A DNA stretch of 64,000 nucleotides from Escherichia virus ESCO5 (taxonomy: Duplodnaviria; Heunggongvirae; Uroviricota; Caudoviricetes): the IMG/VR virus record IMGVR_UViG_2974610597_000001. One strand, written 5' to 3'. Under the pieces are notes generated by a model. That model saw only the letters and a list, made by a program, of their open reading frames with translations. It was not told the DNA's origin and did no database searches. This document shows, piece by piece, positions 32,344 to 63,442 of the stretch. The position numbers were made by a program, and so were the translations under genes. Numbering within the stretch: the first letter of the stretch is position 1; every line of letters starts with the position of its first letter.

Positions 32344-35016
32344 ATGTTTCCAATTCCAATATTTACTATTATGACCAGCACTGGTGTCGTTCCTCTGCCA
32401 GCAGGTATTGTTAAAAAAGTAATCACTCTAGATTACCCAGATAATGCTGGCAATTCTAATAGCAGTTTAGCAATTTTGCTTAATGATGGTAGATTGTTTA
32501 CTCAAGGCGCAAACCTTTTTGGTGAGATTGCAGATGGAACTCGTAGTGCACGATTCAATAATTTCCACTTAGCTTCTACTGTAGTAGCGGATGTGTTTAC
32601 CGCAGATCGTTGTTTTGTTATTAAAACTAACAGTGGGGGATGGCAATATTCAGGATTGACAGCAGGGTTGGTAGGATCTATAGCAGCAGGTGGTACGGAT
32701 GCATGTGTAACTACTTGGACCAGCTTTCCATCTGTAATAACAGGGACTATCTCTTTAGCCAATCTTAAAGAGGTTAAGGGAGGATATAACAACACTCTCT
32801 GGTTGATGAATAGTGGTGTTCTTTATGGATCAGGTCAAAACACAGTAGGCAGTTTAGGTGCAAGTACTACTAACGAAGTTTCTACTCCTCGTCAGATAAC
32901 AAGTGCAGCAGTTGCTTTTGATGCAGGTTACAACCAATGCTCTTATGTCAACAATGTGGGAACCTTGCGTGTTTGTGGGGCTAGTAAAGGTTTAGCAGGT
33001 AATAATAACACAACAACAGCTTTTGTCAATGCCAAGATATCCGCTACTGAAACAGTGTATGTCAAAGATTACATCAATACAGTTTCCCAGACAATAGTTG
33101 TAGGAGATACCTCCGGTGGCACGGGTACAGTAAACTACTTATATGTTAGATCTAATACAGAAACAACCTACACTAAACTGGACACCTTTGCAGCAGGTTT
33201 CTCAACATGGAAATTTCCACCAAGCCGCCACTCTTTTTTCGTTGGGATCAATAATTCCTTGTGGGCTATTGGTAAGAACTACACTGCAAACTTAGGTTTG
33301 GGGTATGATTCTGCGAGCGGAGATCCACTCCAAGTGGGAAAACCAGTTAAACCTGAAGGAGTGGGTTCCTGGGATATAAACAAGCTCACAAGCGTTCATA
33401 CACTGAATATGGATGTTACTAACCAATTAGGTTATCAAGGAACCTTTTTCGTTTATAATGGAGATATGTATTATTCAGGTATTTGGAAAGATGGGAAAGC
33501 CTCGTATCTGTTCAATAGTGGTCTAAACTATAATAAATTCACACCAATAGCAAGCTCCGTGATTACAGGGGATGTTCTGGCAACTGGCTTAACTACAGAT
33601 TCTTTAGGAATTTGTATTGTAGGTGGAACTAAACAGTTGACACATTCTGTTAGCCCAGAAGGAGGTAAACTTTTCAATATTAAATACACTTCTTCTGCCC
33701 CTGCAAACATGACAATATCATCTACTGGTTTAATGACTTTCCATGCAGAAGGTGGTTTTGATGCAGGTATGACAGCCTTAAACGCTGAAGGAACAATTTT
33801 ATCAGATACCTCTGGAGGATATGCTTCAACATTGAGTGTTTACACCCCTAGCTTATCTGCGATGGATGTAGGAACAACACAAACAATGGTAGCAGAAATA
33901 ACACCAACAGGAGCAGCAAGCTTACCTGATATGGTTGTTGAGTATACAACTACAGATCCTAATGTTGCTACAGTAGATCCTACAACTGGTGTAATAACTG
34001 GTGTTGGTGATGGTGGTTGTAGGATTGGTTGCACAGCTACGTATCAAGGTGTTGTTACCGCTTCTGATAGTTCTTATTTAACGGTGAATGCTGTTGCGGG
34101 AAAGGAGTTAGCTCCATCTCCGAGTAGTAGTTTAACGGTTCTAAACGGATATTTCAACCACTCGGCAGATGGGGCAATTACGTTCCCAACTTTATCGGGT
34201 ACTGTTACACCAGCTAACTTTGTAGTTAAGGTGGATGACGTTGTAGTTCCTTCAAGTAAAGTAATATTTAGAAACAAAGCTTTCTCTACAGTGGATAGTT
34301 ATCCAGCAGGAGAATATAGACTGGCTATTGAATTTGCAAGTGCTTCAGTAGTTAATAGTGTGGAAGTGTCTATGGAAGCAAACCCAAGTCTTTTAGAACT
34401 TTGGGGCGGTAATAGAATCAGTTATTCTACAAGCCCAGCCTCACAATTCTTAAAAGGTTGTGCTAACTTAAGACGAATAACTTCTGATTGTTTTAGTAAC
34501 ACATCTTACACCGGAACATCTATAAGCGGTATCTTCTCTGGCTGCACAAGTTTGACAGCTATCCCTGAAGGATTATTCAGTGATGCTTTATTTCCTTCAA
34601 TGACAACAATGTCAAGCACGTTTGAAGGTTGTACATCTTTAACATCTATTCCTTCAGATTTATTTAAGAATCTGTCAAAAGTTACAAGATATTCTTACAC
34701 CTTTAAAGATTGCACCTCTCTTGCAGAAGTTCCAGCAGGAATGTTTGATAATATTCCAACGAAAGTGACCTCTTTAACAGCTACATTCCAAGGTTGTTTA
34801 GGACTTACAGATTTTAATAAGATCTTTAATGACAACCCAGGGTTAACTGTTTGTGGTAAACGTGGAGCATTATCTTCTTTCTTTAGTGGATGCACAAATC
34901 TTACAGGAACAGGAACAACATTAACAAATACATTAGGCGGAGTAGCTAATAGTTACCTATTCAGGTATTGCACAAAACTTTCTGATTATAACAACATTCC
35001 TTCCGGTTATAAATAA
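32344..35016 (+). CDS. tail fibre or receptor-binding protein with Ig-like (Big_2-type) domain and C-terminal BspA-type leucine-rich repeats
   Basis: 890 aa; Big_2-like segment (TTTDPNVATVDPTTGVITGVGDGGCRIGCTATYQGVVTA); five or six C-terminal F.GCTSLT.IP..LF repeats. Confidence 0.55.
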   Translation: MFPIPIFTIMTSTGVVPLPAGIVKKVITLDYPDNAGNSNSSLAILLNDGRLFTQGANLFGEIADGTRSARFNNFHLASTVVADVFTADRCFVIKTNSGGWQYSGLTAGLVGSIAAGGTDACVTTWTSFPSVITGTISLANLKEVKGGYNNTLWLMNSGVLYGSGQNTVGSLGASTTNEVSTPRQITSAAVAFDAGYNQCSYVNNVGTLRVCGASKGLAGNNNTTTAFVNAKISATETVYVKDYINTVSQTIVVGDTSGGTGTVNYLYVRSNTETTYTKLDTFAAGFSTWKFPPSRHSFFVGINNSLWAIGKNYTANLGLGYDSASGDPLQVGKPVKPEGVGSWDINKLTSVHTLNMDVTNQLGYQGTFFVYNGDMYYSGIWKDGKASYLFNSGLNYNKFTPIASSVITGDVLATGLTTDSLGICIVGGTKQLTHSVSPEGGKLFNIKYTSSAPANMTISSTGLMTFHAEGGFDAGMTALNAEGTILSDTSGGYASTLSVYTPSLSAMDVGTTQTMVAEITPTGAASLPDMVVEYTTTDPNVATVDPTTGVITGVGDGGCRIGCTATYQGVVTASDSSYLTVNAVAGKELAPSPSSSLTVLNGYFNHSADGAITFPTLSGTVTPANFVVKVDDVVVPSSKVIFRNKAFSTVDSYPAGEYRLAIEFASASVVNSVEVSMEANPSLLELWGGNRISYSTSPASQFLKGCANLRRITSDCFSNTSYTGTSISGIFSGCTSLTAIPEGLFSDALFPSMTTMSSTFEGCTSLTSIPSDLFKNLSKVTRYSYTFKDCTSLAEVPAGMFDNIPTKVTSLTATFQGCLGLTDFNKIFNDNPGLTVCGKRGALSSFFSGCTNLTGTGTTLTNTLGGVANSYLFRYCTKLSDYNNIPSGYK

Positions 35017-35019
35017 GAA

Positions 35020-35046
35020 AAGGAGCCATTTGGCTCCTTTCTTTTA
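35020..35046. terminator. bidirectional terminator between the convergent modules
   Basis: AAGGAGCC, ATTT loop, GGCTCCTT, flanked by an A-tract upstream and T-tract downstream. Confidence 0.7.
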
Positions 35047-35072
35047 TAAAAACTCTTTATAAATCAATAAGA

Positions 35073-35960
35073 TCAGAACGGAATATCATCATCGAAGTCC
35101 ATCGGAGGTTCTTCTTGATTACTTGGAGTTGGTTCTGGTTGTGGTTCAGGCTTTTTAACTTCTTTCTTCTCTTCTTTCTTAGGTTGTTCTGCGGAACCAC
35201 GAATGGCAGCAGCAACTTTATCAGACAGAGCCAGAACTTTACGAGCAGAATCAATCAGATCTTCTACAGATACAGTCTTAATGGTATGGTCTTTACAAGC
35301 ATTAAGGATAGCGTGACCAACAGATGCCCCAAGATCATAATCATTAATATCAACGCCACGAGATTCAGCAATTTCAGATTTCAGCGTGACAGTTGCAGAT
35401 TGAACAACCCCAGCGATATCGAAAGCATCGCCTTTAACACCATTACGAATCAGTTCCAGTGCACCATTTACTGCGTGACCAGTTTCCAGACCTACAGTAT
35501 CACGTTTTTTATAGGACTGTTTAGGAGCAGCATCGTTGGAACCTTTATTGCCAGAAGATTTGTTAGACTTCTGAACACCATCGGTAGACAATACTGTAAT
35601 ACGAGATTTTTTAGTATTGTAGTAAGTTTTACCGCCTTTATTATCAACGCGATCAATATCAATACTTACTTCTACACCTTTTTCAATAGTGATCCAGTTA
35701 TCACCTTCTTTGACTTGCAGGTTTTCATAACCTTCTTTCAGTTCAATGTCACCAAGAGAAATCCAAACACCTTTCTCCTCTGGTTTAGCACCTTTCTCTT
35801 TCAGAACAAGAGAAGCTCGGTGAGTTGAAACAATCGTTTTTCCTTCCCAATGAAAAGTTTTAGGTTCAGCGAATTTATCCAGTTTAACGTAGTCTACGAT
35901 ACCAGTTGCATAAGTTACGGTTTTGCCTTTACGATCAGTTTCAGTATTAATTACGGACAT
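35073..35960 (-). CDS. single-stranded DNA-binding protein-like, with E. coli SSB-type C-terminal tip
   Basis: 295 aa ending in PSNQEEPPMDFDDDIPF, nearly identical to the E. coli SSB tail; N-terminal body is not a canonical SSB OB fold by eye. Confidence 0.55.
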   Translation of the reverse strand: MSVINTETDRKGKTVTYATGIVDYVKLDKFAEPKTFHWEGKTIVSTHRASLVLKEKGAKPEEKGVWISLGDIELKEGYENLQVKEGDNWITIEKGVEVSIDIDRVDNKGGKTYYNTKKSRITVLSTDGVQKSNKSSGNKGSNDAAPKQSYKKRDTVGLETGHAVNGALELIRNGVKGDAFDIAGVVQSATVTLKSEIAESRGVDINDYDLGASVGHAILNACKDHTIKTVSVEDLIDSARKVLALSDKVAAAIRGSAEQPKKEEKKEVKKPEPQPEPTPSNQEEPPMDFDDDIPF

Positions 35961-35976
35961 TATTATCTCCTCTATA

Positions 35977-36369
35977 TTACATTAATTTTGCACAGAAAGA
36001 GCGGAGTCTTTCCATATCATCTTGCTCTAACAGGTATTTACCTTTACCTATTCCAACTCCAATTTCACCGTTAGGGAAATGAACTATTTGCACTGGAAAA
36101 CCTCCGAGTTTAATTGTGGCAGCTTTGCCTTCTTCGTCTATAACGTTTCGGATTGTATCTTGCAGTGAAATGAATTCTTTGTTTGTAACAGTGGCTTCAA
36201 TTATTTCAGAGGTTTCAACACGAGCCGTTAGCTTCTTGTCTCCACCTTGAATAATCAAAATTTGAAAATAAAAAGAGTTGTCAAGACCTACAACATTTTT
36301 CTCAACTAGTGTCAAACTGGTATAATTTCCATAAACAGTTTCAACAGCTATTTTAGAACGTTCAGTCAT
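35977..36369 (-). CDS. hypothetical protein
   Basis: 130-aa ORF with ATG start and AGGATAG upstream. Confidence 0.45.
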   Translation of the reverse strand: MTERSKIAVETVYGNYTSLTLVEKNVVGLDNSFYFQILIIQGGDKKLTARVETSEIIEATVTNKEFISLQDTIRNVIDEEGKAATIKLGGFPVQIVHFPNGEIGVGIGKGKYLLEQDDMERLRSFCAKLM

Positions 36370-36414
36370 TGAATGCTATCCTATCATAAAATGTTTAATA
36401 TTGTCAAGCTTTAA

Positions 36415-37008
36415 TTACCAAGGAATATCTTCTTCTTCCAATTTGGTATCTACTTGAGGTGGACGTGGAACCTTAACCTCTTTAACAAAACGAAGATATG
36501 GAAAACGTGTAGCGATTTTAATAACATGTTTGGCATCTTCTCTAACATCTTTGTGCAAGAAGCAGATCCCTGTTTCCAAAGTTGTTTCAAAATCTTTAGA
36601 GTAATAACAATCCTTTCCATCAAATGCAGCCTGGCAGATGGACAGATCAAACTCATTCAGAAAGGTTGTCATTACATTTGGGTCCATAATCATAAGGTTG
36701 CAAAGCTGACCGTCACGTTCAAATTCAAAAACGTGTTTAAGACCAGTAACACCCTCGTAGTTATCAGAAGCCTCTTTGTTTCCTAGCTTACGAACATTAG
36801 TTCCCATTAAAGCAGATGCAATTAGTTCTTGTATTTGCTCTTCTGATCGATGTGCAGGAAGTGACGTATAGAAATCCAGATCACGTCCAGCAATATCAAG
36901 AATACGCCAATCACGAACAGCACCGCCAGCCAAGACAGAATTAGGATCAGCGATCTTTAAGACAGTAAGAATTTCTTTGGCAATGTTGATTTGTTTTGAT
37001 TTAGTCAT
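36415..37008 (-). CDS. Pol-beta superfamily nucleotidyltransferase (CCA-adding/poly(A) polymerase head-like)
   Basis: GGAVRDW then RDLDF ([GS]-x(9-13)-DxD pattern) near the N-terminus; C-terminus EEEDIPW resembles the SSB tip. Confidence 0.5.
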   Translation of the reverse strand: MTKSKQINIAKEILTVLKIADPNSVLAGGAVRDWRILDIAGRDLDFYTSLPAHRSEEQIQELIASALMGTNVRKLGNKEASDNYEGVTGLKHVFEFERDGQLCNLMIMDPNVMTTFLNEFDLSICQAAFDGKDCYYSKDFETTLETGICFLHKDVREDAKHVIKIATRFPYLRFVKEVKVPRPPQVDTKLEEEDIPW

Positions 37009-37219
37009 TGATACGCTCCACAGTTACTTTAACAATATCGTCCATATTAATCTCATCTCCCAAGACTTCAATAACACCTTCCTCATAAAGTCGAGCACAT
37101 TCTTCCCATACTTCTGCTTCCGTCATTCCACCTTCAATCTTATTTGCAAGACCTTTAATAACATCTTCATTTTGTTCATCAATAAGAATTGAAACATTAA
37201 AGCTCACTAGTTTACGCAT
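37001..37219 (-). CDS. hypothetical small acidic protein
   Basis: 72-aa ORF overlapping the upstream stop. Confidence 0.35.
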   Translation of the reverse strand: MRKLVSFNVSILIDEQNEDVIKGLANKIEGGMTEAEVWEECARLYEEGVIEVLGDEINMDDIVKVTVERIND

Positions 37220-37227
37220 TGTTTTCT

Positions 37228-37395
37228 CCTTATACCTCTAAACGGAAAGTTTCTTTAGATACAAAATCGTATCCACCTTTTTCAAGCCAGTCATTGTAAA
37301 CCTCATCAGCTTGAGACTCTATCATAAAATACCGAGTGGTAATTTCGTCTCCGACAATACGCACAATTTTATAGCAAATCATGATACCATTTCCC
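37228..37395 (-). CDS. hypothetical small protein (55 aa, not in the ORF track)
   Basis: ATG overlaps the upstream stop (TAATG) and follows GGAGG; translation MGNGIMICYKIVRIVGDEITTRYFMIESQADEVYNDWLEKGGYDFVSKETFRLEV. Confidence 0.3.
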
Positions 37396-37396
37396 A

Positions 37397-37588
37397 TTAA
37401 TCTTCCTCCAGATCAATTTCATTATAGCAATGTATGCAGTAGCCATCGTTGTGCATATGTTGTTCATAAGACATATCTTTACCACAAGACCAACAACGAA
37501 TATCGCCATCGTCCCATTCACGTTCTTCTTCGCCTTCAAATGCATCTGGTAGGTAAGGCATACCAAGACAATCTAAATCGTAATGCAT
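37397..37588 (-). CDS. small zinc-ribbon protein
   Basis: Start moved to the ATG at 37588 after AGGAGGAG; Cys pairs CWSCG and CIHC; acidic C-terminus. Confidence 0.4.
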   Translation of the reverse strand: MHYDLDCLGMPYLPDAFEGEEEREWDDGDIRCWSCGKDMSYEQHMHNDGYCIHCYNEIDLEED

Positions 37589-37637
37589 ATCTCCTCCTAT
37601 AAAGGGGCAGAAGCCCCTTATAAAACAATATGTTAGA

Positions 37638-40600
37638 TCAATGACAGGATGCCCAGGAATTACCCACGTCATATCCGGCAGTAAGCTGAACGTTAAGATT
37701 GTAAAATTCTCCAGCCTTAGTAACAGCTAAAGCAGCAAGTTCACCTGCCCGACTATAAGCTGTAAACCATCCACCTTTGGGAGATTCATGAATGTTAGCC
37801 CAAATTTGCCCTGTCTCTTTTTCCTTATTATGCTTCCATTCTTCAACTTTAGCAAGGCATTCTTTATCAATTTTCTTTTGTTCTTCAGGATCGTCTACTT
37901 TCTTCCAACCTAATGATTCAGGTGAAAACCATTTGAATTCTACAAGGTTACGAGAAACTTCAAGCTGGGCTTCATCGTGGTATGCAATCATTTGTTGCAC
38001 GAAGTCTTTATTCTTCCAGTCATCTTTAAAGAAGTCAACACTTAGTCCTTCTTCTTCGATCATATCGTCATAAATAACCATTGCACGTTTAGCACAGATA
38101 ACCCCACCACTTTGGAACAGAGAGTTAAGAATCGCGTGAGCAGAACGAGTAGGAACCTTACGACCGTCAATACCCAAAACATACTGTTTACCAGTCTTAA
38201 CCCAGAAATCGTTTAAACGTTCTTTAAGACGCGCCAGTGGGAATGCAGCTTCCCAGAAAGCATCGAACACCAGTTGCCCTGTAAACTTATCGCTACCAAT
38301 TGTTTTAGCAACCTTGTCGGCTTGTGCACCATAGGTAATACCATACTTAACAGATTTAGCAGGACTACGTTCAAATTTACGTCCAATAGTTTCAGTGATA
38401 CGTTTTGCCATCATGGTATGAACATCGTTAGGCTTCTCTAACAAGAGAGCGTTACAGTATTCATGAGGCTCCGGTTCGTAGCGCCAACAGTTTCCTGTGA
38501 TGGTAATGCAGTCTTTCTGACGCATGACCCACGTACCAAGTTCTGTTTGTGGACACCAAACATCCTCTACACCCCACTCTTCAATAGTCAAACTTTGAAC
38601 AGGAATGTGAGAGCGGTTAGCCAATGTTACCACTTTTACTTTCTGCTCTTTTGTATTGAAAGCTACAGAGATATTGCCTCCATGCACCAGGTACGAGGCA
38701 GTTAAAGCTGCTTCAAAAAGTTCACCTGGGTTCTGCGCCCAACGCCAAACAGGTTTTTGTTTATGTTCATGCCAGTAACCATCTGCAATCAAGAAACCTT
38801 CCAAGAAAGCTACACGCTCGGCATGAGACATATTAACTACACGCTCTACCCACGGAACATCCCATTTACCTTGTTGAACAGAAGTTAAACTATTTACCTG
38901 ATCTTGTTCCATGTTAAATGGAGCATTACAAATAATATTATCTCCTGTGCAAAGCTCGGCAGTTGTTCTGACTTTAGGCACATAAGTATTCCCTTTACTA
39001 CGGGTATTAACATACCAACGGTGATCTGCTGTTGCACGGTAAGTGTGTGATTTCCCTTTAATCTCAAACGTCTTACTATTTTTATAGAAGACCTTACCTT
39101 TTACTTTAGTCCATTCTTTCAGACCTGTTTCAGCATTGTACCCTAAAATCTCATCCCCTTCCTTCAGGTCGTGATATCCTACCCAACCTTTACGAGTCAA
39201 AGCTTGAGCATCCATCGGCACACAGTAATGCGACTCAATCTTTGCTTCCAAAGAGTCGAAGTCATAACCGATCTGGAAATATTTAGGAACTTCTACACCA
39301 AACAAGTTACGCATCTCCCATCCAAACAAAGATGTGACACGAGGGATATTGGCTACAGACCTATGCTTCATACGAGAGGTTGCAGCATCACATGTAGCGG
39401 CTGGGGTAGGAATACGCCCATCTGCCCTTACTGCGGCTAAGAAACCTTTATCGTATTCTTGATCTTCTTCATCTTCTTCCCAATCAGCACCGCCACCTAA
39501 AATAGAGTTCCTACGATGCTTATACGTTAAGTATTCTACAATCTGAGTAGCATAAGGAAATTTCTCACCCAAAGCTTGCAGGTTAGGACAGATTTCTTTT
39601 TCCTGACCTTTGGTAAAACATGGGTTAGTCAATACTTTAAGACCGCGACCTTTACCTTTTGCTATACGCTCTTGAATCTTCCTTTCCAAGGTTTCCGGTG
39701 CGCACTCCAGATGATCACAACGGTCCTGACAAAAATTAGAAGATAAAGTTTGCTCAACGTAAGCTCGAATACCTTTCTGAAGTTCTTCCTCACTCTTTTT
39801 AATCTTGGTGCCAGATTTAAGAGTCAAATCTTTATCTTTATATTCCGATGGTACCCAACCTAATCCTACAAGCCAGTTTTTAATATGGGTTGTATCGTTC
39901 AATGTCGCAGGGATGTTAGGATCACACAGAGGCTCATCTGCTGCAACTGGCAGTTTCCACTCTTTCCCCAACATAACTAACCACCAATCGCCATCCCTCT
40001 CTTCCAAATGACCATCATGTTTTTTAGCAAAATTGATCATATGGTTAGTTGGTTCGAGGTTCTTTTTAATTTGCAATTTAGGCGGAATAAAAGCTTTAAG
40101 ATAACCTTTTGTTGCTGGTTTAGGTGGCAAAATAGGCTCAACGAGTAAACGAAGACGCTCCATTTCTGCATCCAAAAAAGCAAGGTTCTCTTCTGCTTGC
40201 TTCATATTAAAAGCAAACCCACGGTGTTCCTGGCGCGTGATAATGTCTGCTACACGTTGTTCAAGTTCAAATGGACCTTCCCATTTATCATAATCACCCC
40301 ATTCTTCCATAAGGTAGTTATATACGCTCGTATTGGCTTTGTTGTCATAGATACAGTAATAAAGCATATCCGCAGCAAAAGTCTTAAATCGATCTTCTTC
40401 TGGAATCTCTTTACGGAAATCTATTTTTACATCACCACCTGCTTTTCGAGAAAGTGCTGCCAAGCTATGTCCTGATTTGCCCTCAATCTTTCGATCTGGG
40501 TTTAACACTTTACTCAAAATCAAGGAGTCAATAAGTTTTACCTTATTTTTGCCCCACGTATTATATTTAACACTGTAATCTAATCCATAAAACAGTTTTG

Positions 40601-40970
40601 TAGCCAACCAGTCGTAGTTGATACCGTTGTGAGCCACAGCCATTTCAACCAGATATTCAGGCTTGTCTTTAAAATAACCTTCATGATTAATAAAGTCTGG
40701 GAAATCTTTTAGTTGAAAATGCGTGTAATCTTGCGCCACATACTCTTTAAGAACATATGTATATTTACCATCTGACTCTTCATAAGGACGCCCATCAAAG
40801 ATGTATTTAGGGCCATCGTGGAAAGCTACTATTTCTCCTGTTTCATGGTTCTCTAAGACAATACAGTGCATTTGAAATGTGTCTTTGAGACGATAAGGAC
40901 TAGCTAAATAATCAATAGTGTCATTATTCAACAATCCGTTTGCTTCAATATCCCATGTAAACTTACTCAC
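37638..40970 (-). CDS. family A DNA polymerase with 3'-5' exonuclease domain, interrupted by a putative intein
   Basis: Exo motif DIEANGL; motif A DFDSLEAKI (res 571-579), motif B RSPAKSVKYGITYG (869-882), motif C YHDE (997-1000); about 250 extra residues between motifs A and B. GTG start overlaps the upstream TAG. Confidence 0.9.
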   Translation of the reverse strand: MSKFTWDIEANGLLNNDTIDYLASPYRLKDTFQMHCIVLENHETGEIVAFHDGPKYIFDGRPYEESDGKYTYVLKEYVAQDYTHFQLKDFPDFINHEGYFKDKPEYLVEMAVAHNGINYDWLATKLFYGLDYSVKYNTWGKNKVKLIDSLILSKVLNPDRKIEGKSGHSLAALSRKAGGDVKIDFRKEIPEEDRFKTFAADMLYYCIYDNKANTSVYNYLMEEWGDYDKWEGPFELEQRVADIITRQEHRGFAFNMKQAEENLAFLDAEMERLRLLVEPILPPKPATKGYLKAFIPPKLQIKKNLEPTNHMINFAKKHDGHLEERDGDWWLVMLGKEWKLPVAADEPLCDPNIPATLNDTTHIKNWLVGLGWVPSEYKDKDLTLKSGTKIKKSEEELQKGIRAYVEQTLSSNFCQDRCDHLECAPETLERKIQERIAKGKGRGLKVLTNPCFTKGQEKEICPNLQALGEKFPYATQIVEYLTYKHRRNSILGGGADWEEDEEDQEYDKGFLAAVRADGRIPTPAATCDAATSRMKHRSVANIPRVTSLFGWEMRNLFGVEVPKYFQIGYDFDSLEAKIESHYCVPMDAQALTRKGWVGYHDLKEGDEILGYNAETGLKEWTKVKGKVFYKNSKTFEIKGKSHTYRATADHRWYVNTRSKGNTYVPKVRTTAELCTGDNIICNAPFNMEQDQVNSLTSVQQGKWDVPWVERVVNMSHAERVAFLEGFLIADGYWHEHKQKPVWRWAQNPGELFEAALTASYLVHGGNISVAFNTKEQKVKVVTLANRSHIPVQSLTIEEWGVEDVWCPQTELGTWVMRQKDCITITGNCWRYEPEPHEYCNALLLEKPNDVHTMMAKRITETIGRKFERSPAKSVKYGITYGAQADKVAKTIGSDKFTGQLVFDAFWEAAFPLARLKERLNDFWVKTGKQYVLGIDGRKVPTRSAHAILNSLFQSGGVICAKRAMVIYDDMIEEEGLSVDFFKDDWKNKDFVQQMIAYHDEAQLEVSRNLVEFKWFSPESLGWKKVDDPEEQKKIDKECLAKVEEWKHNKEKETGQIWANIHESPKGGWFTAYSRAGELAALAVTKAGEFYNLNVQLTAGYDVGNSWASCH
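38490..39224 (-). other. putative intein (Hint domain with LAGLIDADG-like motif) inside the DNA polymerase
   Basis: Residues 583-827: N-terminal Cys, block-B-like TADH, LEGFLIADGYW, C-terminal ITITGN followed by Cys +1. Confidence 0.55.
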
Positions 40971-62026: not shown

Positions 62027-63442
62027 TCATTTGGAGAGGAATTGTCTTCCCATGATCTTACCGTTCTTCACAGCGGTCCCATCGTGTCCATTGTAATCCC
62101 AGGTTCCATCGATATTACGCAAGAAGCTATCACGAACAGTATAGGCTTTACCGTTCTCTACTTTACTTTCTTCCACAATGATTGCCATAACAAGCTTATT
62201 TTCAATTTCGGTAGTAACCGATTCTTTGATACCCTCTGTAACTTCACGATCATATTGGATATAAACTCGCTCCTCGGTTACTTGCACGTCTACCACATTT
62301 TTAAATGTGTAGGTCTGTTGCGTAGTGTAGAGGACACGAACGACACTCTTCTTACCTACCGGAGGCTTCTTACGAGGCTTACGGTAACGTGGTTTAGGGT
62401 TGTTAGTTGGAAGCCAACCAACAATATCCCGATCATATCCAACATGACCCCAAGTGAAATGCGTAGCCGATCCACTATCCGTAGTTCCGTCACGAAAGAG
62501 AACTTCTACGTGACCACCACAAGGGCGGTGTCCACCATTATTATAGTTGTATTTTGCCGTGCGCGGGAGAATGAAGTATTCTTTAATCGCCCACTCTTCC
62601 AGATTGTCGATATTCCAAGTGAATACTGTTCCCTTAGCAACATCTGTTTGACCATTGTTGAAGCGAACCTGCACGAAATCTTCCGAAGGCATAACACCTG
62701 TGTTCGGCAGATATTCAAATGCAGTATCTTCCGCTACAAACTGTTCTTCCTCTTGCTCCTCAATACTTGGCACAGGCGCAGCTTCATCGTATTTCGCAGC
62801 AAACATATTTTTAAATTCTTGAGCCGTGACTTCTACAAGGCCGCGATCACCAGTAGCAGCAGAGTGTGGGCGTGGTAAATCCCCAACTTCAATATGCATT
62901 GCATCTAAGCCTGCTTGACGATCAAAGAAGATAACCTTGCGGAATTGTTTATCTTTATATTGTGGCAGTTCATACATACTTGGATCGATTGTCTTCAAAC
63001 GTTCAGCATCTTCTGGCTTCCAGAAGCTTTTACCTGTTGCAAATCTAAAGTCTACCAGTAGTTTAACAACATCTCCTAATGATAAACTATCTGCATCTAC
63101 GAAAACGTCTTCGATTCCCAATAACCCTGATTTCTTAAGAATCAAATCTAACATGTAACCTCCTGTGGTTTGTTCTGCGTCTGGATAACGATCAACACTG
63201 GTGCTGGTTACACCGTTTATTTCACCAGTGGAGGCATTGTAGGAAATATATGGGAAGGTCATATCGTTCATTGCAAAATCACCTGAACAGGTTGGATCAT
63301 CTTCTCCCTCCCAGCCATACACCTTCACAATACCTTCACACAATTTGTCATACACACCAGCGCGACGTGCTGCTTCAGCAACTTCCTGTTTACGGGCAAA
63401 TTTATTAATCATGATTCCTCCTGTTAATTGCCATAGATGCAC
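62027..63442 (-). CDS. hypothetical large protein (possible enzyme of the accessory biosynthetic module)
   Basis: 471-aa ORF; likely true start is the internal Met (MINKFARKQ) after GGAGGA near 63411; no motif identified by eye. Confidence 0.5.
   Translation of the reverse strand: MHLWQLTGGIMINKFARKQEVAEAARRAGVYDKLCEGIVKVYGWEGEDDPTCSGDFAMNDMTFPYISYNASTGEINGVTSTSVDRYPDAEQTTGGYMLDLILKKSGLLGIEDVFVDADSLSLGDVVKLLVDFRFATGKSFWKPEDAERLKTIDPSMYELPQYKDKQFRKVIFFDRQAGLDAMHIEVGDLPRPHSAATGDRGLVEVTAQEFKNMFAAKYDEAAPVPSIEEQEEEQFVAEDTAFEYLPNTGVMPSEDFVQVRFNNGQTDVAKGTVFTWNIDNLEEWAIKEYFILPRTAKYNYNNGGHRPCGGHVEVLFRDGTTDSGSATHFTWGHVGYDRDIVGWLPTNNPKPRYRKPRKKPPVGKKSVVRVLYTTQQTYTFKNVVDVQVTEERVYIQYDREVTEGIKESVTTEIENKLVMAIIVEESKVENGKAYTVRDSFLRNIDGTWDYNGHDGTAVKNGKIMGRQFLSK

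Follow-up and report, generated by a model that had tools for sequence, protein, structure and literature searches.

A probable non-canonical SSB of Escherichia phage ESCO5 ends in the C-terminal tip of E. coli SSB

Introduction

The protein gp225 of Escherichia phage ESCO5 ends in the same 12 residues as E. coli SSB, on a body that sequence searches place outside the canonical SSB family. On balance, we favor the view that gp225 is a non-canonical phage SSB, from a family restricted to phages, that plugs phage ssDNA into the network of host SSB partners. What the analysis shows is the gene itself and the identity of its tip, the domain layout predicted for the protein, a genome with no other SSB, the position of the gene in a replication module, the conservation of the tip throughout the family, and homology to the trigger of an ExoI-regulated defense system.

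The C-terminal tip of SSB is the hub that leads more than 12 bacterial enzymes of replication, repair, and recombination to ssDNA. Host-like tips are familiar from phage and plasmid SSBs, as are acidic aromatic tails from phage SSBs. For the protein studied here the SSB label was already present in GenBank, and the combination of an SSB-like body and a host C-terminal tip had already been stated for a homolog, Bas52_0087. New here are the ancestral tip across 323 clusters, the placement of both defense-escape mutations of that homolog within the four-helix domain, the two C-terminal forms of the family together with an apparent homing-endonuclease hotspot at the 3′ end of the gene, and the conserved ...DDIPW ending of the neighboring gp223. 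With the same peptide carried on a different scaffold in so many clusters, the family offers a natural system for learning which host partners are needed or neutralized by large lytic phages. Since one homolog is a trigger of the ExoI-regulated DRT10, the family also bears on how infection is detected by ssDNA-sensing defenses.

Results

gp225 is the final gene of a replication block

The stretch of DNA that we analyzed (the window) comprises 64,000 nucleotides, of which positions 34000–40000 match Escherichia phage ESCO5 with 100% identity. This phage is a 149-kb myovirus (genus Phapecoctavirus, subfamily Stephanstirmvirinae). Window position 1 corresponds to position 63035 of the ESCO5 record (NC_047776.2); because the 64-kb window as a whole does not occur letter for letter in that record, at least one difference must lie outside 34000–40000. 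The gp225 gene runs on the minus strand from an ATG at 35960 to a TGA at 35073–35075 (Table 1) and is 100% identical to positions 98107–98994 of the ESCO5 record. GenBank already labels the ESCO5 protein 'single-stranded DNA-binding protein', its close relatives are mostly labeled 'hypothetical', and the family to which it maps in PHROGs (phrog_4477, E = 4e-97) carries the label 'unknown function'.

The gene closes a leftward replication block whose order is primase/helicase (gp216), Dam-like methylase, DNA polymerase I (gp219), small ORFs, the nucleotidyltransferase gp223, gp224, and gp225. The hairpin downstream of gp225 separates this block from a convergent block of tail genes, and the same terminator hairpin is found in relatives, 3′ of either the SSB-like gene or a homing-endonuclease cassette. 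No second SSB is annotated in the complete ESCO5 genome, and when we searched all ESCO5 ORFs with E. coli SSB using phmmer, gp225 was the sole match, by virtue of its tail alone.

Table 1. Features of the gp225 locus and of the 3′ ends of Form-B relatives. Positions refer to the window, except where a locus handle precedes them.
Feature	Position	Strand	Basis or remark
SSB-like CDS gp225 (HOR27_gp225)	35073..35960	minus	ORF list and translation; 295 aa plus TGA
Shine-Dalgarno GAGGAG, strong	35967..35972	minus	6 nt before the gp225 ATG; direct sequence reading
All-beta OB-fold-like domain (predicted), residues 1–127	35580..35960	minus	pLDDT about 90; presumed ssDNA-binding module
Basic low-complexity disordered linker, residues 128–152	35505..35579	minus	pLDDT <50 at 132–147; pI 10.1
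Four-helix domain (predicted), residues 153–255	35196..35504	minus	family-specific; pLDDT about 96; putative oligomerization module
Disordered Lys/Glu/Pro-rich linker, residues 256–283	35112..35195	minus	pLDDT about 50; analogous to the SSB intrinsically disordered linker
Tip, residues 284–295, EPPMDFDDDIPF	35076..35111	minus	identical to the C-terminal tip of E. coli SSB
Intrinsic terminator hairpin, bidirectional	35018..35041	both strands	terminator scan; between gp225 and the convergent tail gene
gp224, 130 aa	35977..36369	minus	phrog_16560 (label 'unknown function'); directly upstream of gp225
Promoter-like site TTGACA-18-TAGGAT, extended TG, sigma-70-like	36378–36407	minus	in front of gp224
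gp223 nucleotidyltransferase	36415–37008	minus	phrog_10174; weak match to PolyA_pol head domain; two genes upstream of gp225
Form-B extension / downstream locus	L002:4886-5399
Form-B extension / downstream locus	L011:2042-2553
Form-B extension / downstream locus	L009:2040-2084
Form-B extension / downstream locus	L010:2043-2087
Form-B extension / downstream locus	L012:3425-3896
Form-B extension / downstream locus	L014:3380-3761
Form-B extension / downstream locus	L015:3620-4213

The tip is identical to that of E. coli SSB

The protein ends in ...PEPTPSNQEEPPMDFDDDIPF, its last residues being ...PTPSNQEEPPMDFDDDIPF. Whereas the original prediction had described these residues as almost identical to the E. 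coli SSB tail, the agreement proved to be exact over the final 12 residues, and in both proteins PSN precedes this 12-residue tip, with a two-residue insertion (QE) in gp225. Pairwise BLASTP matched the two tails with E = 4e-08, and aligning the family profile to E. coli SSB with hhalign gave E = 4.9e-10 over 19 columns of the tail, a match that lies far beyond chance. Among enterobacterial phages, the stretch identical to the host extends to 12 residues in gp225 and to 15 in some relatives (PSNEPPMDFDDDIPF in P0033, P0044, and P0059).

At the DNA level, similarity between gp225 and chromosomal ssb was confined to the last 40 nt (90–92.5% identity). Eight of the 12 tip codons are the same as in E. 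coli ssb, compared with 5.0 ± 1.3 expected from phage codon usage (exact P = 0.03), with the main contribution coming from two CCG proline codons, rare in ESCO5 (7%), that coincide with those of E. coli. We considered a recent transfer of tail DNA from the host ssb but do not claim one on a 40-nt match and this P value; the codon coincidence is a hint, not evidence, of past short-patch exchange or of matching to the host.

The body lies outside the canonical SSB family

Outside the tail, we found no resemblance to SSB in the sequence. Pfam searches with gp225 and 41 homologs returned only noise, with no match to PF00436 at E ≤ 1 in any of the 42 members, and the precomputed annotations of 120 gp225 homologs held no Pfam domain in any of the 120. 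BLASTP and hhalign comparisons of gp225 or its family with E. coli SSB aligned 19–26 C-terminal residues and none of the body, and searches of all PDB sequences with phmmer and with the family profile (hmmsearch) matched only the tails of SSB entries. The original prediction that the rest of the protein does not look like the host SSB therefore holds at the sequence level.

We modeled gp225 as a single chain with AlphaFold2 using a 42-sequence alignment. The model had a mean pLDDT of 83.7 and a pTM of 0.45, the low value of the latter being expected for two domains joined by flexible linkers. It predicts an N-terminal all-beta domain that resembles an OB fold of the nucleic-acid-binding type, followed by a basic linker, a four-helix domain, and a second linker that leads into the tip. 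The closest structural neighbors of the N-terminal domain were overwhelmingly ssDNA-binding OB domains, with fold matches that were moderate, and its conserved positions are G20, H47, W66, K84, G95, Y113/Y114, and I121; the domain is not basic. Its likeness to RPA/CST-type OB domains (Stn1, RPA32, and archaeal RPA) is at the level of the fold only, with 7–8% identity, and the organisms, the domain context, and the tail all differ. The four-helix domain, which had only generic helical structural neighbors, contains the strongest internal motifs of the family, RDxxGxETGHAxNGA and DYDLGASVGHAxLNA. Residues 256–286 contain eight prolines and have a pI of 4.9. The N-terminal domain thus appears to be OB-like, yet by its sequence gp225 is outside the canonical SSB family.

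Together, the predicted architecture and the genomic context justify the SSB label. With E. coli SSB and other PF00436 proteins gp225 appears to share an OB fold, a disordered Pro-rich linker, and an acidic tip identical to EPPMDFDDDIPF, and presumably the role of coating ssDNA and recruiting partners, but it lacks the sequence signature of their OB domain and has a four-helix domain that bacterial SSBs do not. In being a phage-specific, non-canonical, OB-based SSB, it would resemble T7 gp2.5 and, more loosely, T4 gp32, which have an acidic C-terminal tail with a terminal aromatic residue that mediates protein–protein contacts, although our tests for similarity between gp225 and either protein, in sequence or in fold, found none. 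Phage SSBs of the gp2.5/gp32 kind are sensed by defense systems such as Retron-Eco8 and Hachiman.

The tip is the most conserved feature of a large phage family

A word-indexed search recovered 137 gp225-family clusters at 90% identity, and an exhaustive profile search of 1.84 billion representatives recovered 323 clusters at 50% identity (E ≤ 0.001), 111 of them with E ≤ 1e-30. In the phage collection, the family is found in Stephanstirmvirinae (ESCO5/phAPEC8-like and phi92-like phages) and in Vequintavirinae (rV5-like phages, Seunavirus, and Mydovirus), and further relatives have Klebsiella, Salmonella, Cronobacter, Pectobacterium, Erwinia, Serratia, or Aeromonas as hosts. These searches show that the relatives now labeled 'hypothetical' mostly belong to the gp225 family.

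Members fall into two size classes. Those of ~280–300 amino acids, gp225 included, have one OB domain, and those of 370–425 amino acids have an additional ~60-amino-acid beta domain (KVYGEI...VGGRL...GFKAY) in the first linker. The absence of this insert from gp225 is a difference between subfamilies that leaves its membership intact, as gp225 shares homology throughout the N-terminal beta domain and the four-helix domain, the invariant or nearly invariant ETGHAxNGA and GASVGHAxLNA motifs, and an acidic tail ending in [ILV]PF. In the family alignment P294 and F295 are invariant and D288 and D290–D292 are nearly so. An acidic end with [ILV]P[FW] was present in 99 of 138 distant representatives, the rest being mostly near-variants or truncated sequences.

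Because it is conserved across distant representatives, we regard the tip as older and better conserved than any other feature of the family and not as something grafted onto the ESCO5 protein; the enterobacterial phages stand out in how long a stretch of identity they share with the host tip. The original prediction is thus upheld in part, in that a non-canonical body does carry the host tip, and its proposal that the phage had grafted this tip onto its own scaffold is weakened. Several distant members (P0152, P0154, P0180, P0182, P0197, and P0219) end in ...DIPFN, ...DVPFN, or ...DIPFS, with one residue past the Phe, which is another variation in the position of the terminal carboxylate within the family.

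A homolog is linked to an ExoI-regulated defense system

ExoI is a classical partner of the SSB tip. A connection between ExoI and the gp225 family comes from Bas52_0087 (QXV84166.1) of Escherichia phage RudolfGeigy/Bas52 (Vequintavirus), which BLASTP aligns to gp225 over both the OB domain (35% identity, E = 1e-12) and the four-helix domain plus tail (33% identity, E = 8e-16). Like gp225, it ends in ...FDDDIPF and is encoded near phage replication genes. It differs in its length of 408 amino acids and in having the additional ~60-amino-acid beta domain in the first linker, where gp225 has a single OB domain, and its tip matches E. coli SSB over about 7 residues, compared with 12 for gp225.

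Two Bas52 mutants that escaped the DRT10 (UG17) reverse-transcriptase defense carried D252V and Y351C in Bas52_0087, which on the basis of AlphaFold2 and Phold was described as SSB-like, with two OB folds, a disordered C terminus, and FDDDIPF (bioRxiv 10.64898/2026.04.29.721553). In the same study, DRT10 was active against Stephanstirmvirinae generally and was restrained by the host exonuclease ExoI/SbcB, and expressing Bas52_0087 by itself caused no toxicity and did not suffice to trigger DRT10; its authors propose that Bas52_0087 competes with or displaces SbcB/ExoI, and they call the helical region with the escape sites a putative oligomerization interface (bioRxiv 10.64898/2026.04.29.721553). 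In our alignment, D252 pairs with the nearly invariant D154 of gp225, where the helical domain begins, and Y351 pairs with A250, within the last helix of that domain, which puts both escape sites in the four-helix domain.

In the literature that we searched, there was no published biochemistry of any gp225-family member. A search for the extension motif described below and for the orthologue names rv5_gp209, Phi92_gp156, and phrog_4477 returned only the DRT10 preprint, and the papers on Retron-Eco2 and KpAvs2 concern other proteins of these phages.

Some relatives extend past the tip

In many relatives, which we call Form B, the protein runs 14–17 residues past ...DIPF, continuing with [AS]P[ILV]GL[QP]Y and a hydrophobic-patterned tail (peptide ...DIPFAPIGLQYGRNFLHCF; example of an extension, APIGLQYGRNFLHCF). 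Thus, in Form A (for example, ESCO5) the tip is exposed, and in Form B (for example, nieznany) the terminal Phe is buried by the extension. Known complexes of the SSB C terminus need the free carboxylate of the terminal Phe, and because this carboxylate is not free in Form B, proteins of that form ought to bind the canonical partners poorly. The existence of Form B speaks against a strict need for an exposed tip.

In nieznany and one metagenomic contig, the body is 99–99.7% identical to that of ESCO5. Other codons stand in place of the stop, and the extension and the start of a gene for a 164-amino-acid HNH endonuclease overlap; the endonuclease gene separates the SSB-like gene from the terminator hairpin known from ESCO5. 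An HNH/EndoVII-type homing-endonuclease gene usually follows the extension and overlaps it, and three divergent Form-B genes, too, have endonucleases of the same type (phrog_2340/1035) downstream. We therefore considered whether the extension is a by-product of homing-endonuclease insertion over the stop codon, but this is not the whole story. In PVP-SE1 gp038 and Klebsiella phage BIS47_17 the extension is present although no endonuclease gene follows it, and in the first 7 extension codons of seven lineages we counted 64 synonymous and 23 non-synonymous codon differences, close to the pattern in the tip codons (62 and 24, respectively). Because of the endonuclease-free cases and this tip-like excess of synonymous differences, we conclude that the extension is not mere read-through; on codon comparison, it shows the mark expected of protein-level selection. 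The idea that the extension acts as an intramolecular cap found no backing in AlphaFold2, which left residues 296–310 of a Form-B protein disordered (pLDDT <50).

The ESCO5 and nieznany genes differ at 15 of 885 nt, with 4 of these differences in the last 28 nt, a distribution consistent with a recombination boundary at the junction between gene and extension. This near-isogenic pair, one with an exposed and the other with a capped tip, constitutes a natural genetic experiment. Judging from sequence context, homing-endonuclease insertion and co-conversion seem to have a recurrent hotspot at the 3′ end of the gene. In Bas51 (WalterGehring), a different homing endonuclease (phrog_1035, annotated as 'putative homing endonuclease') begins 9 nt after a Form-A stop codon (L004:2736-3314). 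The Bas51 tip reads ...YEFDDSIPF and the Bas52 tip ...YSFDDDIPF, and the last ~30 nt differ at many positions.

A second tip-like ending in the same block

The nucleotidyltransferase gp223 ends in ...LEEEDIPW, an acidic tail that resembles the SSB tip and closes with an aromatic residue. Among its homologs, all 10 down to 59% identity retain a D[DS][IF]PW end, and the two at ~30% identity do not. Tip-like ends are rare in the 149-kb ESCO5 genome, where of 1459 stop-to-stop ORFs of at least 40 amino acids only those of gp225 and gp223 have one. The gp223 tip may mark a docking site, on a host or a phage protein, that is common to several proteins of the module.

What the tip and the body may be for

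If gp225 is the non-canonical SSB that we favor, its N-terminal OB domain would coat the ssDNA of phage replication forks and recombination intermediates, self-association would fall to the four-helix domain, and the flexible linker would present the host-identical tip. The tip could then dock gp225-coated phage ssDNA on host ExoI, RecQ, PriA, RecO, RecJ, the chi subunit, DnaG, and others, and phage DNA would thereby join, and compete for, the genome-maintenance network of the host. The tip might instead serve mainly phage Pol I and the primase/helicase and/or fold back on the OB domain to gate DNA binding, as in T7 gp2.5 or T4 gp32, in which case its identity with the host tip would reflect shared ancestry or convergence rather than hijacking. 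We give this main rival reading a minor but real chance. ESCO5 encodes a full replisome of its own, the ...DDIPW end of gp223 in the same cluster suggests a phage-internal docking site (T7 gp2.5 and gp4 share one such site), and distant family members keep a generic acidic-[ILV]PF end and not the E. coli-specific PPMDFDDDIPF; however, the 12–15 host-identical residues in enterobacterial phages exceed the needs of a generic acidic tail, and the genetic link between Bas52_0087 and an ExoI-regulated system points to host partners. It is also conceivable, although we think it unlikely, that gp225 is chiefly a decoy that titrates or displaces host SSB partners (for example, ExoI, RecQ, RecJ, or RecG), so that phage DNA ends and ssDNA would be protected or ssDNA-based defenses disabled, with ssDNA coating secondary. 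An exact copy of the host tip would suit a decoy, as would the proposed competition of Bas52_0087 with SbcB/ExoI and the typically very high abundance of phage SSBs (bioRxiv 10.1101/2022.08.27.505566), but a replicative role is hard to spare for the sole SSB candidate of a phage with its own replisome, strong titration of essential partners would be expected to be harmful whereas Bas52_0087 alone is non-toxic, and Form-B siblings with a buried Phe are common. Engagement of host partners, a tip for phage machinery, and a decoy are not mutually exclusive.

The nature of the body leaves less room for debate. An ordinary host-derived ssb captured by the phage would explain the identical tail, the 40 nt of similarity to chromosomal ssb, and the two coincident CCG codons, and we find it barely credible for the gene as a whole. 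Its body has no similarity to SSB by BLASTP or hhalign and no PF00436 match among the 42 members, its four-helix domain is absent from bacterial SSBs, its 323 clusters form a separate lineage with the same architecture, and the codon coincidence is marginal. For the gp225 body, sequence comparison refutes the captured-ssb reading, which is the outcome that the original prediction had named as its own refutation. We consider it improbable, too, that gp225 is not an SSB at all but an adaptor with an SSB-like docking peptide, its OB-like domain binding protein, RNA, or a glycan. The fold matches of the predicted domain are indeed moderate, the domain is not basic, and PHROGs assigns no function, but its closest structural neighbors overwhelmingly bind ssDNA, the gene lies within a replication module in a genome otherwise without an SSB, and the defense system affected by the homolog is one that senses ssDNA or cDNA metabolism.

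A broader scenario, to which we attach rather little probability, treats the SSB tip as an exchangeable module. Cassette exchange at the homing hotspot would toggle the gene between Form A, with its exposed host-identical tip, and Form B, with the terminal Phe under a selected 15-amino-acid peptide ([AS]P[ILV]GLQY...), retuning its host or phage partners and possibly the firing of DRT10, and the ...DDIPW end of gp223 would compete for the same pockets, the whole amounting to a phage 'SSB-Ct interactome'.

Other genes of the block

With the promoter-like site in front of it, gp224 is possibly co-transcribed with gp225. At the position of gp224, one divergent relative (L012) has a gene with 31% identity, and no similarity was detectable between gp224 and Bas52_0086, the neighbor in Bas52. 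We therefore rejected gp224 as a universally conserved partner of gp225.

The gp219 DNA polymerase I ORF (37638-40970, minus strand) encodes 1110 amino acids, and the syntenic polymerases are of 1189 amino acids in a close relative (L002) and 829 in a divergent one (L015). The middle of gp219 (...CVPMDAQALTRKGW...LIADGYW...) reads like an inserted intein or a segment of the homing-endonuclease type.
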